Assembly: GCA_965205015.1 (NCBI GenBank)
Contig: OZ242029.1
Coordinates: 4,320,001 to 4,384,000 of the forward strand
Length of the DNA: 64,000 nt
Reading direction: 5' to 3'
From: Candidatus Poribacteria bacterium
GTDB taxonomy: Bacteria > Poribacteria > WGA-4E > WGA-3G
The notes under the pieces were generated by a model. The model did not search any database, was not told where the DNA came from, and saw nothing but the letters and a program-made list of their open reading frames with translations. Position numbers and translations under genes: made by a program. The stretch's first letter is position 1. Each line of letters opens with the position of its first letter. Positions 17,721 through 23,643 of this stretch are shown here, in pieces.

Positions 17721-18845
17721 CTATTCGGATTCTTCGTCGTCATGTCTACCGAGCAGTTTATCCCAGAATCCGCCGTGTTCGTTTTGATGGGTTTCGCCTC
17801 GCAGTTTCGCAAATTCTGCTAACGTTTTTCGTTCTTCTGCATTGAGGTTTTTGGGCGTTTCGATCTCTATCCTTACAACCAGATCCCCTGAATAGGATTG
17901 CCCATAATGCGGGACTCCTTTATTGGGTATACGTAGTTGTGCCCCGTACTGGGTGCCCGGTGGAATATCGAGTTCTTCCGGTCCATGAATACTATCAACT
18001 TTGATCTTCCCACCGAGTGTGGCTTGGACGAACGAGATTTTGGCTGATGTAATAAGGTCGTTTCGATCCCGTTGGAAATGTTCGTGTGGTTCGACATTAA
18101 TAACGACAAACAGGTCACCCGAAGGCGCGCCGTTTACACCTATTTCGCCTTTACCTTGTAGTTGGTACTGGAAACCTGTATCAACGCCTTTATCAATATT
18201 TATCGGAATGTCGCGTATGTTTCGAACAGCGCCCCTTCCGCGACAGGATTGACAGGGTTCCTGAATAGTCGCCCCTGCCCCACGACATTTTGGACAGGTT
18301 CGCGACATTGTGAAAAAACCGTGTGATTGGCTGATTTGCCCCCTGCCGTAACATTGCGAACACGGTACAGGACTCGTTCCCTTTTTGGCACCACTGCCTT
18401 CACATGTAGGACACAATTCAATCCGTGGCACTTGGATTGTGGTCTGTTTGCCGTGAATAACGTCTTCCAATGTTATGTCAAGGTGGTATTGTAAATTACG
18501 TCCGGGTTTGGGGGGACGCCGCGCCCCGCCCCTGAATCCACGAAAGAGGTTGCCAAAGACATCACCGAAAACTTCGTCAAAATTTATGGTTAAATCTTCG
18601 AAATTGATCCCCATACCTTCCAGTCCTGCGTGTCCGAACCTATCATAACGGTCCCGTTTTTCACGGTCTCGCAGTACTTCATAAGCCTCAGTGGCTTCTT
18701 TGAATTTGTCTTCAGCAACTGTGTCGCCCGGATTTTTATCCGGATGGAATTGTATGGCGAGTTTGCGGTAAGCCTTCTTTATTTCGTCTTCATCGGCATC
18801 ACGATTGACGTTCAGAATCTCATAATAGTCGCGTTTTTGCGTCAT
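17721..18845 (-). CDS. dnaJ: Chaperone DnaJ
   Basis: J domain with HPD, four CxxCxGxG repeats, C-terminal domain. Confidence 0.97.
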
Positions 18846-18863
18846 ATGCTGTCCTTCCTGTGG

Positions 18864-19724
18864 CTATTCAGTCGTGTTCGCAGTCGCATCCGTATCATCC
18901 GATACGTCGCCTGATGTTTCTTCTTCAGCTTCAGCGGGTCCCTGCGAAACGACAACTTGAGAGGCGCGTAGGACACGGGTGTGCAACATGTAGCCACGCC
19001 GAAATTCCTCAATAACTTTTCCCTCCGGCACATCGTCCGATACTGTGACCAAGAGTGCCTCGTGCTGGTTTGGATCGAACATTTCTCCAACCGCTTCAAT
19101 CGGTGTCAACCCGTGGATTTTGAGGGCATCTAAGAGTTGTTTATGGACGAGTTGCACGCCTTCGTTAAAGGTCATGAAAGCTGACGAAATATCGCTCGTC
19201 TCGTCCTGCTCTGCTGCGCTTCTGATCGCGGCTTCCAGACTGTCCAAGGCAGGGATCATCCCTTCTAAAATTCCCTCATTGGCGAATTTGAGTTGCCGTT
19301 GATAATCAGTTTGCAAGCGTTTTTTGGTATTCTCAGCTTCTGCTGCTGTACGCAGGAGACGATCGCGTTCTGCTTTGTATTCTTCATGGACCTGCTGCAC
19401 AGCAGTTTCTACCTCTTTTTCGATTTCCGTGTGCAATAAGTCTTCGCGTTCTGCTTCGTATTGCTCGCGCACTCTTTGCACAATCGTTTCGACTTCTTCT
19501 TTGACGTCGGAGGTGAGGTTGGCAGCGGTTTCTTCGACAGGCGCGATGCGTTCTTCTATCTCCTTTTTTACTTCTGATTTGACTGTATCAAGTGCCGTCT
19601 CCGCGATTTCTCGCATCCGTTCGACAAGTGTTTTTTCTTGACTGTCGGTAGAATCGTTATCGGTAGACGCTTCTTTTTCTGTTTCTTCTTCTGTTTCTAT
19701 GTGTATTTCTCTAACTTCAGCCAT
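18864..19724 (-). CDS. grpE: Nucleotide exchange factor GrpE (extended N-terminus)
   Basis: LRTAAEAENTKKR, FDPNQHEAL, GYMLHTRVLRASQVVVS. Confidence 0.93.
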   Translation of the reverse strand: MAEVREIHIETEEETEKEASTDNDSTDSQEKTLVERMREIAETALDTVKSEVKKEIEERIAPVEETAANLTSDVKEEVETIVQRVREQYEAEREDLLHTEIEKEVETAVQQVHEEYKAERDRLLRTAAEAENTKKRLQTDYQRQLKFANEGILEGMIPALDSLEAAIRSAAEQDETSDISSAFMTFNEGVQLVHKQLLDALKIHGLTPIEAVGEMFDPNQHEALLVTVSDDVPEGKVIEEFRRGYMLHTRVLRASQVVVSQGPAEAEEETSGDVSDDTDATANTTE

Positions 19725-19787
19725 AATGAAGCCCTTCTGTCTTTCTTGAGGTGTGCTTGGAAAGCACGCTTGTTTGAGTCGTCCATT

Positions 19788-20534
19788 TTAGCTATGAACG
19801 GCGTTAGCAAAGGCTCTCATCAGTTCGAGAGAGCCGTTTTCTTCGAGGATATTCCCTGTGACGATGAAGTCCGCCCCTGCTTCTACCTTTTTTGCGGCGA
19901 TTTCTGGTGTCCGGATGCCTCCACCGACGATGAGTGGGATGCTGATTTGATTTTTTACTGTTGTGATCATCTCTTCTGGAACAGAGTGGACAGCACCACT
20001 TCCTGCCTCCAGATATACCATTTGCATACCGAGATACTGGGCAGCTAATGCGTGTGGTCCCGCAATGTCGGGTTTATCACGCGGTATGGGAATTGTGCCA
20101 CTCATAAATTCAACGGCGGTTTTGTTGCCGCCTTCAATCAGCATATAGCCAGTTGGAATGGGTTTAAGCGCGTAACGTTGTATCCACGGTGCGGCTTTGA
20201 CCTGTTCGCCAATAAGATAGTTCGGGTTGCGTCCACTTATGAGACTGATATACAGAATGGCATCCGCATGGGGAGTGAGGTGCATCGAATCGCCTGGAAA
20301 TAACACCAGCGGGAGTTCTGTTTCCTGCTTAAGGGCTTTCGCGACGCGGTGTAAATCGTTCGTTAAAAAACTGCCACCGAGCAAAATTGCGTCTGCCCCT
20401 GCCTCTTCTATTTCGCTTGCAAGTTTAACGCATTTTTCAATGTCACACTGCTCCGGATCAATTAGAACGAAATAACCAGCATGGCGATTTTTCAATACCT
20501 CGTGAAAGTAGTTAAGAACCCAATTTGATCTCAA
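19788..20534 (-). CDS. Geranylgeranylglyceryl phosphate (GGGP) synthase, group II-like
   Basis: LIDPE, ILLGGS, LFPG, SLISGRNPNYLIGEQ, TGYMLIEGG, YLEAGSGA, IVGGGIR, GADFIVTGN. Confidence 0.92.
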   Translation of the reverse strand: MRSNWVLNYFHEVLKNRHAGYFVLIDPEQCDIEKCVKLASEIEEAGADAILLGGSFLTNDLHRVAKALKQETELPLVLFPGDSMHLTPHADAILYISLISGRNPNYLIGEQVKAAPWIQRYALKPIPTGYMLIEGGNKTAVEFMSGTIPIPRDKPDIAGPHALAAQYLGMQMVYLEAGSGAVHSVPEEMITTVKNQISIPLIVGGGIRTPEIAAKKVEAGADFIVTGNILEENGSLELMRAFANAVHS

Positions 20535-20627
20535 ATGCGATTTCCTTTTCTGACTATGCTAAATATAGGTTTGAATGCTATGCCATTTCTGATGTTACGG
20601 ACTTAGGGAGCACCAGTTACCTTAAAA

Positions 20628-20656
20628 ATTTTATCATATTTATGTCGATTTGTCAA
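20628..20656 (-). promoter_or_regulatory. Sigma70-type promoter upstream of GGGPS-grpE-dnaJ-prmA
   Basis: TTGACA (20656-20651), 17-nt spacer, extended -10 TGaTAAAAT (hexamer 20633-20628). Confidence 0.65.
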
Positions 20657-20752
20657 ATTCTGTGTTGTCGCGTGCGTTCATAAAGGAGGGTACCTGCGGC
20701 GACACCTACGTTGCGTAAGAAACCAGACCCCGATATTTATCCGTAAGGTAAA

Positions 20753-21601
20753 TTAAAAGAACGTTCCGAGATAGATTGCGCCGAGTCCGACGAATATATC
20801 CCATTTCATCCAACGTTGAATGGACGCGCAACTTTCTTTCGAAGCATCTTGACCCAGACGAATTGCCAAACCGATGAGCACCACATCAACACCGATAAGA
20901 ACAACAATCAAGTAGTGCCATGAATACCAACGAAATAGATATGGGATAGGACTAAAAAGAATAACAGATGCCATGAAGCCGATGGCTGTCCAGACTGCGA
21001 TGCCTGGATTGAGCGTAGCAAGCGTTTTCGCGTTATTTTTCAGGTCGCCTTCTGTATCCTCAAGGTCTTTGACGATTTCCCGCGCCGTTGTGAATAAAAA
21101 GGCGAAGAGTGCTGGAATGAGCGTACCTTGCACCGAATCTATTGCTACACCGCCAGCAATGAAGGTTAAACCCGTTAATCCGCTAACGACTAAATTGCCG
21201 ACAAAAGGGGTACGTTTCAACCAGAAAGCGTAACTTACAAGCGCAATCGACACGAGAATAGCAATGACTGTTGTATTTCTGTTGATAAGGGTTCCCAAGT
21301 AGATGCCGATGACGGTAAGTACTATTGCCAAAATTAGTGCATTGGGACGCCGAATGCGTCCAGAAGGGAGCGGTCGGCGCGGACGATTAATGCGGTCAAT
21401 ATCGTAATCACAGTAATCGTTGATGGCGTTTCCGGCAGAAATCACGATAAGCGCGGCGAGAGAAACCAACAGAAGTCGGATATCGGCGAGATTTTCCACG
21501 TTCCCTTGGCTAGCAAACATCCCACCGAGCCACGCAGAGATGAAGGCGATGATTCCGTTCAGGGGTCGCGCTAACTCAACGTACGCGATCAATGTCTTCA
21601 T
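20753..21601 (-). CDS. Digeranylgeranylglyceryl phosphate (DGGGP) synthase-like UbiA prenyltransferase
   Basis: ELARPLN, AGNAINDYCDYDIDRINRPRRPLPSGRI, LKRTPFVGNLVV, AREIVKDLEDTEGD; multiple TM helices. Confidence 0.82.
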   Translation of the reverse strand: MKTLIAYVELARPLNGIIAFISAWLGGMFASQGNVENLADIRLLLVSLAALIVISAGNAINDYCDYDIDRINRPRRPLPSGRIRRPNALILAIVLTVIGIYLGTLINRNTTVIAILVSIALVSYAFWLKRTPFVGNLVVSGLTGLTFIAGGVAIDSVQGTLIPALFAFLFTTAREIVKDLEDTEGDLKNNAKTLATLNPGIAVWTAIGFMASVILFSPIPYLFRWYSWHYLIVVLIGVDVVLIGLAIRLGQDASKESCASIQRWMKWDIFVGLGAIYLGTFF

Positions 21602-21928
21602 GTTTTGTGATCGTGAGCATTGAATGATAGTCTATTAGGGATAACGGATACCGAAATGCGTTCCATACTGTCAGCACACGGACTGTAGTATGACTTGAAC
21701 GAAAGGAGGTACAGTAGAAAAAGAATGCTTGCGCAGAAACCGAGAACTTTCCCTCACAAATCGAGAATGGGCTGCCCTTTAGACAAAAGGGGTACACGGA
21801 GCAGATAAATCCGAGTGTGACTGATAGTAAAATGAGGATCAGATGCGCGAGGTTTCCGCGAAAAACGAGTAGACTCGGCACAAGGGAGCGTGTAAAAAAA
21901 TTGAAACCTCTCGTTTCCGGTAATATGC

Positions 21929-22981
21929 CTACGATTCATCCTCCAGTTCTTGAATTTTCGCTTCCAGTTCTGCAACTCGTTTTTGGAGTTTAGTGAATTC
22001 GGGGAGCAGTTCTGGCAATTTCCGAGTCGCTGCGTGAATCCGTAATTCCTGTTTGTGGGGACGTGCGGGGAATCCGGACAGATGACTGCCGGCAGGCATA
22101 TCCTTTGTAACTGCGGATTTGGCGTAAACGACACTGTCTTCGCCGAGAGTCAGATGTCCTGCTGCACCTCCATGCCCCGCGATATTTACTCGGTCCCCGA
22201 GTGTCGTGCTGCCAGCGATACCGACTTGCGCGGCGAGGCAGCAATCTTCTCCGATAACAACGTTGTGTGCGATTTGGACGAGATTATCCAGTTTAGTACC
22301 GCGTTTGATCAACGTTTCAGAGAGTGTTGCTCTATCAATAGTCGTATTCGCTCCAATTTCAACATCGTCTTCAATGACCACGGTTCCGATTTGGGGGATT
22401 TTGTGGTGTCGGTTACTAACGGGGGCGAATCCGAACCCATCGCTGCCAATAACTGCGCCGCAGTGGATGATCACGCGGTTGCCGATGGTGATTCCTTCTC
22501 GAATACTGACATGTGGGTAGATAAGACCGTCGGAGCCGATCTTGGTTCCTTCGCCGATGTAGGCAAAGGGTTGAATGATGGTATCATCTCCAATTTCAAC
22601 GTTATCAGCGATATAGGCAAACGCTTGGATTGAGACGCGCTCACCGAGTGTGACGTTCTTTCCTAAAATTGCGGTCTCATGAACCCCGGGCAGTGCGCGA
22701 TCGTTTTTGTCCCACGCGAACATTTCGATAACTTTGACGAAAGCCCAGTAGGGATTCTCAACACAGATAGTGGGCTTACCGTTACCATTGACACCGCGGC
22801 CAATAATAATGGCGCCGGCTTGTGTTGTCGCTATAGCGGCGACGTACTTGGGATTAGCAACAAAAGTAATTTGGCTTGGGAGTGCCTCTTTGATTCCAGA
22901 AACTCCTGTAATTTCGATATCACCGTCCCCAGAAAGATCGCCATCCAAGCGTTCACAAATTTCCTTGAGTTTCATACGCAT
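21929..22981 (-). CDS. lpxD: UDP-3-O-acyl-glucosamine N-acyltransferase
   Basis: Hexapeptide repeats; IGSDGFGF, KIPQIGTV, GANTTIDRA, TKLDNLVQIAHNV. Confidence 0.96.
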   Translation of the reverse strand: MRMKLKEICERLDGDLSGDGDIEITGVSGIKEALPSQITFVANPKYVAAIATTQAGAIIIGRGVNGNGKPTICVENPYWAFVKVIEMFAWDKNDRALPGVHETAILGKNVTLGERVSIQAFAYIADNVEIGDDTIIQPFAYIGEGTKIGSDGLIYPHVSIREGITIGNRVIIHCGAVIGSDGFGFAPVSNRHHKIPQIGTVVIEDDVEIGANTTIDRATLSETLIKRGTKLDNLVQIAHNVVIGEDCCLAAQVGIAGSTTLGDRVNIAGHGGAAGHLTLGEDSVVYAKSAVTKDMPAGSHLSGFPARPHKQELRIHAATRKLPELLPEFTKLQKRVAELEAKIQELEDES

Positions 22982-23046
22982 CTAACCCTAATCCTTTCTC
23001 CGTAGATTTTAACCGTGTCACCTTACGAAGTTTAGGCGGTGCAACA

Positions 23047-23643
23047 TTATTCAGGATTTCCGTCATTCTTTTCGCCTTCGTTCATCAAGCCGATTAACTG
23101 TTGTGTCAAATCGTGTTCCTTTTTCACATAAAGTGTGATGAGTCGTTTTTCGAGGATGATGTCATAATTTTCGGACTCACCGACTTTGACAATGAGTTCT
23201 TGAAGGTTGTTGTAAATCGGTTCCATTAACTCTTGCTCTTTTTCAAGCAGTGCCTGCTGACCGATTTGGACCTCACGTTGATATTCCTGCTGTTTGAGGC
23301 GAATTTCGTTATCCAAATCCGCGGTTTGTGCTTTTTCCACGAAGAGTTCAGTTTTCGCTTTCTTTTCTTGTAGCGTTCTGATGTCGTCTTCTAACTGCTG
23401 CAATTTCGTTTTCAGGCGTTCGCTTGCGGCTTGGAGCAGCTCAGTTGCATCCGTCGCTTTTTTGGATCCTTCTAAAACCTCTTGTGTGTTGACGACACCG
23501 ATTTTGAAAGATTCTTGTCCGATACTTCCCGAACTAAAACAGAAAACTGTAAGACCGATAATTAAGAGTGTGAGACGTGCTTGGTAAGCACCCAACCGAA
23601 ATGGTTTCATCAAATTCTTCGGGGTGAAAACCTCTGAATTCAT
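23047..23643 (-). CDS. skp: OmpH/Skp periplasmic chaperone
   Basis: KIGVVNTQEVL, coiled coil, YDIILEK...DLT; lies between bamA and lpxD. Confidence 0.85.
   Translation of the reverse strand: MNSEVFTPKNLMKPFRLGAYQARLTLLIIGLTVFCFSSGSIGQESFKIGVVNTQEVLEGSKKATDATELLQAASERLKTKLQQLEDDIRTLQEKKAKTELFVEKAQTADLDNEIRLKQQEYQREVQIGQQALLEKEQELMEPIYNNLQELIVKVGESENYDIILEKRLITLYVKKEHDLTQQLIGLMNEGEKNDGNPE

Follow-up and report, generated by a model that had tools for sequence, protein, structure and literature searches.

The stretch of DNA considered here, hereafter the window, comprises 64,000 nucleotides of a Candidatus Poribacteria genome (contig OZ242029.1, positions 4,320,001 to 4,384,000) and carries, side by side on the minus strand, two genes of archaeal ether-lipid type. 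One (19788-20534; 248 amino acids (aa), TTG start) encodes a predicted geranylgeranylglyceryl phosphate (GGGP) synthase (GGGPS), and the other (20753-21601; 282 aa) a UbiA-family prenyltransferase resembling digeranylgeranylglyceryl phosphate (DGGGP) synthase (DGGGPS). Judging from sequence comparison, we consider with moderate confidence that the pair most likely makes DGGGP-type isoprenoid diethers. This reading is carried by the identity of both genes, the conservation of their catalytic residues, their retention throughout the phylum under purifying selection, and their clustering in other lineages with a gene for geranylgeranyl reductase (GGR). Both open reading frames (ORFs) lie where the initial annotation had placed them, and their Pfam matches (PcrB, 2.1e-49; UbiA, 5.6e-43) are well past chance level.

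In the proposed pathway, GGGPS would transfer the C20 geranylgeranyl group of geranylgeranyl diphosphate (GGPP) to glycerol phosphate, and the membrane-bound DGGGPS-like UbiA would add a second chain, giving a DGGGP-type diether analogue of phosphatidic acid. Activation of the diether could follow through the bacterial CdsA, with head groups added by other bacterial enzymes, as the literature shows for E. coli. The outcome would be isoprenoid diether lipids beside ordinary ester lipids and lipopolysaccharide (LPS), made by a pathway that may be long resident in Candidatus Poribacteria. It is important to note that the substrates, the product, the stereochemistry of the glycerol phosphate (glycerol-1-phosphate, G1P, or glycerol-3-phosphate, G3P) and the share of such lipids in the membrane are what we infer from the genes.

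The sequencing runs that contain the stretch carry the label sponge metagenome. The best 80 loci in named genomes belong to Candidatus Poribacteria or to metagenome-assembled genomes (MAGs) of uncultured bacteria, with UbiA identities of 56-92%, and public sources name the orthologues as DGGGP synthase or UbiA prenyltransferase of Candidatus Poribacteria. Relatives are labelled below as genomes (G001-G175) and loci (L), and sequencing runs as X; G001 is a closed chromosome; its UbiA and the window protein share 92% identity.

Identity of the two enzymes

The gene at 19788-20534 is, by its predicted protein, a group II GGGPS, as first proposed. The protein exceeds the curated cut-offs of NF003198 (292.5 bits; cut-off 247), of the GGGP equivalog model TIGR01769 (228; 161.55) and of PF01884 (168.5; 23.9). 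Group II structures in the PDB are far ahead (4mm1, 2e-57, 197.6 bits; 4jej, 1.2e-51, 178.7 bits), whereas the group I entry 2f6u reaches 1.6e-7 (34.2 bits) and heptaprenylglyceryl phosphate synthases (HepGPS/PcrB) about 1e-6 (about 31 bits); the group labels of these entries follow a review (PMC9385802). Residues Y130, Y174, E176, S179, G180, G204-206, T226 and G227 are invariant in 65/65 orthologues. Y130, Y174 and E176 line up with the Y and the Y-x-E of MtGGGPS, and both the Tyr/Tyr/Glu triad and the standard phosphate-binding loops are present, while an aromatic residue, Phe143, occupies the hexamer-anchor position (W141). The last loop residue is Asn228, as in group I; among the poribacterial orthologues it is N in 62/65 and T in 3/65, and Thr at this position is described as typical of group II (PMC9385802). 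The residue at the site proposed to limit chain length is Leu86 (Val86 in MtGGGPS, Ile90 in Fj), which is compatible with a short chain but not decisive.

The product of the neighbouring gene matches PF01040 with 147.5 bits (cut-off 34.2). Its top NCBIfam models are of DGGGPS type (NF009523, 228.7 bits; NF009521, 209.4; NF009522, 169.3), against 85.7 bits for EboC, 79 for ChlG, 57 for heme O synthase and 48 for UbiA. The best PDB match, spanning residues 2-278, is the DGGGPS of Methanocaldococcus jannaschii (MjDGGGPS; 6m31, 6.4e-38, 134 bits), followed by chlorophyll synthase (5.5e-10, 42 bits). The motifs quoted in the initial annotation, NDYCDYDIDRINRPRRPLPSG (residues 61-81) and AREIVKDLEDTEGD (residues 173-186), are present in the translation. 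Residues N61, D62, D65, D69, Y124, K129, R174, E175, D179, D182 and D186 are found in 80/81 aligned poribacterial UbiA sequences, the other row being a gap. Mutation of D66, D70, D180, D183 and D187 lowers the activity of MjDGGGPS, with N62, Y125 and K130 listed alongside (PMC9385802); N62, D66, D70, Y125, K130, D180, D183 and D187 correspond to N61, D65, D69, Y124, K129, D179, D182 and D186 of the window protein. Both Asp-rich motifs, one of them with D65-x3-D69, and the Tyr/Lys motif Y124-x4-K129 are thus present, but they are common to the whole UbiA superfamily.

Phylogeny gives the same picture. The tree (quick IQ-TREE, LG+G4) comprised 149 rows: the window protein with two poribacterial orthologues, four paralogues, and 142 representatives (255-335 aa) drawn from the 150 top matches of a search through 1.84 billion proteins; it took in no experimentally characterised sequence. 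The window UbiA falls in a 146-row clade, which a branch with SH-aLRT 98 sets apart from the quinone, heme and UbiA2 paralogues of G001; nested inside this clade is a 9-row subclade (SH-aLRT 99) with the window protein and every row known as poribacterial. All 142 aligned sequences (the window protein and 141 representatives) match DGGGPS-type models at E<=1e-30, three of them also matching ChlG. The named members of the clade include Nezhaarchaeota, Odinarchaeota and Euryarchaeota (10/30 clusters queried had any named member), and the nearest ESM Atlas clusters are a mix of bacteria and archaea.

G001 has four UbiA-family genes, the window orthologue among them. Two of the others exceed the cut-offs for a quinone-type UbiA/MqnP (TIGR01475, 314 bits; 180.8) and for heme O synthase (TIGR01473, 263.5 bits; 210.3), so the quinone and heme roles are already covered by separate prenyltransferases. 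A quinone or heme prenyltransferase identity for the window protein is excluded by the model scores, the PDB ranking and the tree. The initial annotation, which preferred a DGGGPS-type UbiA to a quinone or heme enzyme, agrees with all three, and no grouping with the quinone or heme paralogues was seen. The gene at 20753-21601 is predicted to encode a UbiA enzyme of the DGGGPS clade, DGGGPS-like in that it lies under the equivalog cut-offs given below.

Two further UbiA-like genes were noted in relatives. The fourth paralogue of G001 (L113, 1333-2256, minus strand; 307 aa) has weak DGGGPS-type scores (132 bits) and lies outside the DGGGPS clade in the tree, and in G005 a 378-aa weakly UbiA-like gene on a very long branch (L126, 9840-10976, minus strand) stands directly 5' of the DGGGPS-like gene.

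Retention in the phylum and the reductase gene

A census of 175 Poribacteria species genomes, cross-tabulated by hand, found GGGPS in 143 and UbiA in 144. Both genes occur in 141/175, neither in 29 and one only in five (GGGPS in G046 and G104; UbiA in G017, G019 and G088). Of the 29 genomes with neither, 19 form one block of handles (G047-G066 except G053), and two of them, G056 and G060, have lpxD with nothing of the cluster within 13 kb downstream. Some lineages show signs of local decay. In G034 (C1:1447473-1448305) the UbiA match is broken in two, and the GGR match contains extra stops both in G036 (C2:1265194-1266383), where two TGA and one TAG fall among residues 1-117, and in G139 (C136; an extra TAG).

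GGGPS and UbiA are under purifying selection comparable to that on their housekeeping neighbours. Measured against 13 relatives, the ratio of nonsynonymous to synonymous substitution rates (dN/dS) is 0.02-0.09 for GGGPS and 0.07-0.12 for UbiA, next to 0.03-0.06 for lpxD, 0.03-0.08 for ilvE, 0.03-0.13 for grpE and 0.09-0.21 for dnaJ. Contigs of relatives, 90-99% alike to the locus, were also found in sponge metatranscriptomes from two studies, one (X6) covering GGGPS and another (X1) both genes and their junction. The RNA runs contained 5-6% of the sampled words; parts of the stretch were uncovered, and nothing is concluded there.

The strongest contextual argument that the pair acts on isoprenoid glycerol ethers is the UbiA-GGR-GGGPS cluster of other Poribacteria, which also lends contextual support to GGGP as the putative acceptor of the UbiA enzyme. 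In G005, for example, a GGR-family gene lies between the rlmB-like gene and GGGPS. Its product exceeds the TIGR02032 cut-off (226 bits vs 158.8), and its best PDB match, over the full length, is the digeranylgeranylglycerophospholipid reductase of T. acidophilum (3oz2, 1.4e-81). GGR was found in 56/175 genomes, and none of those that lack both pair genes has it. A comparison of coordinates by hand placed it in a three-gene cluster in 31/56 genomes, beside one of the two genes in 7, and on another contig or far away in 18. In 8/8 fetched loci the order UbiA-(rlmB)-GGR-GGGPS is co-oriented, six of them being without rlmB, with gaps down to about 28 nt. GGR is absent within the 64 kb of the window, and the context described by the initial annotation was incomplete in this respect: it missed the gene that sits between the pair in many other Poribacteria and that supplies the strongest contextual evidence.

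The reductase is itself a candidate selenoprotein, as judged from its reading frame. In G005 (L126, 6613-7806, minus strand), and likewise in L120, L131, L132, L133 and L135, the frame is interrupted once, by a TGA codon at residue 46 (PVR-U-AEG). Stop-free orthologues have Cys there in 3/3 cases (L129, L130 and L134), and so do the two GGRs of known structure, 3oz2 and the 3atq/4opg family. About 16 nt 3' of the TGA, 6/6 TGA forms have a hairpin with compensatory changes. SelB exceeds its cut-off in 5/5 genomes tested vs 2/14 controls. In the census, one in-frame TGA occurs in 39/56 genomes with GGR, and 13 rows covering residue 46 are without TGA. A literature search on geranylgeranyl reductase and selenocysteine, judged by title, returned none on such a selenoprotein.

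Gene order, remaining steps and alternative explanations

Several observations weigh against diether synthesis by the pair, and they concern the UbiA enzyme, the reductase, the kind of evidence at hand, the gene order and the rest of the pathway. The UbiA protein scores under the DGGGPS equivalog cut-offs (NF009523, 269 bits; NF009521, 296; NF009522, 353) and is for this reason classed as DGGGPS-like and not as an established DGGGPS; moreover, sequence does not reveal which acceptor a UbiA enzyme uses. GGR is absent from the closest relatives, G001-G003, which have just a 420-aa flavoprotein under the GGR cut-off. It is thus probably missing in the window's lineage, where the chains would probably stay unsaturated unless another reductase acts. 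Since the pair are usually neighbours and the absences are clustered, the co-occurrence table amounts to few independent events. The RNA-library contigs are weak evidence of transcription, DNA carry-over being possible, and the literature searched contained no lipid data for Poribacteria.

As for gene order, 80 loci of relatives were compared. An rlmB-like SpoU methyltransferase gene (PF00588; also matching RlmB TIGR00186) separates UbiA and GGGPS in 63/80, four of these having a larger gap than the other 59, and in 11/80 GGGPS is not within 10 kb of UbiA. Among the other loci, two have a gap without a SpoU match, one (L043) is directly adjacent and three end too early. In the unlinked genomes GGGPS was kept elsewhere in 5/5, from 12 kb to several Mb off. 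The initial annotation placed GGGPS directly downstream of UbiA; this is true of the window, where 218 nt separate the two ORFs, but it is the result of a deletion and not a fixed operon. At 20713-20756 (minus strand), 44 bp replace 1,164 bp (L001 10846-12009) that in close relatives hold the body of the rlmB-like gene. In blastn of window 21700-19700 against L001 and L003, 21699-20757 corresponds to L001 9903-10845 and 20712-19700 to L001 12010-13023, and tblastn finds the last 19 codons of the gene at 20656-20712 (minus strand; L001 SpoU residues 422-440, 84% identity). No other copy of this rlmB-like 23S rRNA methyltransferase gene was found within the 64-kb window. The lost 1,164 bp and the surviving codons mark the direct adjacency as a recent deletion, secondary and lineage-specific. 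An 873-nt Logan contig (run X8, record 19) spans GGGPS, the spacer and the 3' end of UbiA with 0 differences, so the adjacency does not stem from an error in a single assembly; X8 is a second sample from the study of the probable source run and hence not fully independent. An RNA-library contig of a relative (X1, record 4) also spans the deletion junction.

GGGPS appears to own a putative promoter. A sigma-70-like site, TTGACA-17-TAAAAT with an extended TG, lies upstream of it at 20628-20656 (minus strand), called from 11/12 consensus matches only. The site falls inside a 37-nt segment (20661-20625) that is 89% identical in the distant locus L043, compared with about 75% in coding regions, and the remaining L043 matches fall on both coding regions. 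With a putative promoter of its own for GGGPS, the pair is probably not a single operon in the window.

Statements on the rest of the pathway rest on closed Poribacteria chromosomes as stand-ins for the window's genome, which also tempers the reading. G001 has two polyprenyl synthases, one of them a short-chain, GGPP synthase (GGPPS)-like enzyme (IdsA 228, GGPP_syn 211, octaprenyl 110 bits), as well as dxr and CdsA in an frr-cdsA-dxr cluster. Neither CarS nor a canonical G1P dehydrogenase (G1PDH) was found in the closed genomes of five relatives, where the initial annotation had reported neither in the window. The PF01864 matches in 4/5 relatives score 24-26 bits, and the one in G001 sits in an ordinary CdsA (PF01148, 208 bits).

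The best G1PDH-like candidate is a divergent Fe-ADH_2 protein, with 114-134 bits against NF002022 (cut-off 413) in G001-G004 and 72 bits in G005; the GldA model gives 73 bits, and the PDB matches are 3ce9 (2e-19) and the G1PDH 9h4x (5e-18). Its names differ between sources (G1PDH at JGI, iron-containing alcohol dehydrogenase at NCBI). The G001 copy (L098, 1315-2376, plus strand; 353 aa) has G1P dehydrogenase as its best model (119 bits), and the structures of G1PDH and GldA align with it only from residue 74 on. The gene occurs in 76/175 genomes, mostly of the window's clade, and shows no co-variation with the pair; its neighbours are genes for a PD40 protein and an M19 dipeptidase. It was rejected as an obligate partner of the pathway, many two-gene genomes being without it and G140, G141 and G175, which lack both pair genes, having it. 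PF13685 was set aside as a G1PDH probe that is too general, the control having matched 13/14 genomes.

The ester-lipid side was also surveyed. PlsC-type acyltransferases are present in 6/6 genomes tested, and among the stand-ins PlsY is absent in 5/5 and PlsX in 5/6. PlsX (PF02504) and PlsY (PF02660) occur in the same 9/175 genomes (G011-G018 and G027) and were not found in the other 166; no PlsB-specific search was made. A role of GGGPS as substitute for an absent first G3P acyltransferase was considered and rejected: the clade that has neither GGGPS nor UbiA lacks PlsX and PlsY too, and there is no complementary pattern.

An alternative is that the two enzymes are functionally uncoupled, GGGPS supplying the monoether GGGP to a minor, non-bulk lipid in the manner of Bacillus PcrB, and UbiA prenylating another acceptor. 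The unrelated gene between the pair in most loci, the loci where the two are unlinked, the promoter-like site of GGGPS and the UbiA scores under the equivalog cut-offs all lean this way, as does the caution of Coleman et al. (PMC6431249) that bacterial DGGGPS homologues may have other functions. However, the two genes are retained together in 141 genomes vs 5 discordant ones, the tight co-oriented UbiA-GGR-GGGPS cluster is found in deep as well as shallow lineages, the best match of GGR (3oz2) is a reductase working on a diether lipid, and the quinone and heme prenyltransferases have genes of their own. We therefore regard uncoupled enzymes as rather unlikely. Sponges host abundant archaea, which counts for a different explanation, namely that the pair salvages or remodels archaeal lipids from co-resident sponge archaea instead of synthesising lipids de novo; prenyl transfer releases pyrophosphate, and its reversal is not expected, which counts against it. 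Such salvage would fit the finding of no canonical G1PDH, and Coleman et al. proposed a reverse or catabolic role for bacteria without G1PDH (PMC6431249), but a GGPPS-like synthase and dxr of the methylerythritol phosphate (MEP) pathway are present, and the Cloacimonetes enzymes synthesise without a G1PDH of their own (PMC7852524). On balance salvage seems very improbable.

Less probable still is decay of the pathway in the lineage of the window, in which case the locus would have lost GGR, rlmB and hrcA and the two genes left would be non-functional relics. The 1,164-bp deletion adjoins both genes, close relatives lack GGR, and broken copies exist elsewhere (the split UbiA of G034, the extra stops in the GGR of G036); on the other hand, both ORFs are intact, their dN/dS of 0.02-0.12 is like that of housekeeping neighbours, all key residues are kept and the putative promoter segment is conserved. 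DGGGP-type diethers remain the probable product. A broader proposal, which we put forward tentatively and hold to be possible but doubtful as a whole, is that Poribacteria, which dominate among the symbionts of marine sponges, naturally build a mixed membrane: an ancestral, co-oriented DGGGPS-GGR-GGGPS cluster, with GGR a selenoprotein in most lineages having it, would yield saturated archaeol-type diethers beside ester lipids and LPS, and the window's lineage would have lost GGR and make an unsaturated variant. The initial annotation had already suggested a mixed membrane, which we too infer from the genes.

Gene neighbourhood and comparison with known systems

On the same strand as the pair lie lolD, ilvE, bamA, skp and lpxD upstream and grpE, dnaJ and prmA downstream. 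The immediate neighbours are lpxD (21929-22981, minus strand; TIGR01853, 372.9 bits, cut-off 242.5) and grpE (18864-19724, minus strand; Pfam GrpE, 5.4e-42). The envelope block recognised initially is there, with lolD, bamA, skp and lpxD, but it also includes ilvE, which had been overlooked; bamA, skp and lpxD on the same strand bear out the LPS and outer-membrane context. Among relatives, lpxD lies upstream of UbiA (<=2.5 kb, same strand) in 71/75 loci with room, and grpE downstream of GGGPS (<=1.5 kb) in 61/62. Together with the single poribacterial clade and the neighbour-like dN/dS, this favours long residence over recent transfer, as had been suggested. Base composition shows no break across the pair, and an Rfam scan of 18700-23100 gave two chance-level matches only (E 0.76 and 0.98). 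In G005, G053 and G026 (loci L126, L131 and L134) hrcA stands between GGGPS and grpE, and in G005 dnaK follows grpE. In the window the GGGPS-grpE gap is 63 nt (19724-19788), and the block has no hrcA or dnaK; heat-shock control of GGGPS through HrcA and its operator CIRCE was rejected, as no CIRCE-like site was found in the window at <=3 mismatches.

Bacterial pairs of this kind are already known. Coleman et al. (2019) found GGGPS and DGGGPS in all 12 phyla surveyed of the Fibrobacteres-Chlorobi-Bacteroidetes (FCB) group (PMC6431249), and Villanueva et al. (2020) reported that the Cloacimonetes enzymes yield archaeal-type lipids in E. coli and that bacterial co-localisation was apparently restricted to Cloacimonetes (PMC7852524). 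The FCB precedent named in the initial annotation thus holds for Cloacimonetes, but the host itself is Candidatus Poribacteria, which NCBI taxonomy lists among candidate phyla outside the FCB group. Like the Cloacimonetes and other FCB bacteria, it is an outer-membrane bacterium with a bacterial lipid pathway, a group II GGGPS and a DGGGPS-clade UbiA, with no CarS or canonical G1PDH found in the closed genomes of relatives, with CdsA as a possible activator and with GGR-like and polyprenyl synthase genes in the lineage. Unlike them, Poribacteria show co-localisation phylum-wide, often with GGR; activity has been shown for the Cloacimonetes enzymes, and that of the poribacterial ones is predicted.

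Compared with single enzymes, the UbiA protein resembles MjDGGGPS (6m31) in its full-length alignment and in keeping all mutationally tested Asp together with N62, Y125 and K130, and the GGGPS resembles the group II enzymes 4mm1 and 4jej in its full-length alignment, Tyr/Tyr/Glu triad, phosphate loops and aromatic hexamer anchor. They differ from the archaeal DGGGPS and group II GGGPS in the bacterial host, in the UbiA scores under the equivalog cut-offs and in Asn228 and Leu86 of GGGPS. Bacillus, with PcrB and AraM, likewise has a GGGPS-family enzyme in a bacterium, and its product there is an isoprenoid glycerol ether; PcrB, in contrast, is a group I, C35-specific enzyme without a DGGGPS partner but with a true G1PDH (AraM).

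The word 'Poribacteria' is absent from the main texts of PMC7852524 and PMC6431249, although their supplements, which list 'related candidate phyla', may differ. A full-text literature search, covering main texts and with some matches judged by listing, returned no paper linking Poribacteria to these enzymes or lipids. Public annotation already names the poribacterial orthologues; the present analysis adds a census across the phylum, the cluster of three genes and natural contrasts of presence and absence. It extends a known phenomenon on solid genomic ground and brings no new mechanism. Homologues of Tes and Mss have been reported in 10/29 and 14/29 Poribacteria MAGs, respectively, in a Black Sea study (PMC11868695), and together with the genes described here they raise the question of membrane-spanning lipids.

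Bacteria with archaeal ether-lipid enzymes are the main natural tests of whether mixed membranes exist and are stable, a matter central to the 'lipid divide' and to models of early cell and eukaryote evolution. The case has so far come mostly from FCB-group bacteria, especially Cloacimonetes, and Poribacteria would add an independent and abundant phylum in which the genes have long been present, are maintained by selection and frequently stand in a cluster with a lipid reductase gene. The phylum is reachable via sponge tissue and cell sorting, and its lineages with three genes, two or none offer contrasts for lipidomics. Should the predicted lipids prove real, archaea could no longer be taken as the sole source of isoprenoid glycerol ethers in sponges. 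If the mixed-membrane proposal is true, Poribacteria would be a natural exception to the lipid divide outside the FCB group, and some 'archaeal' isoprenoid ether biomarkers in sponges would be bacterial.

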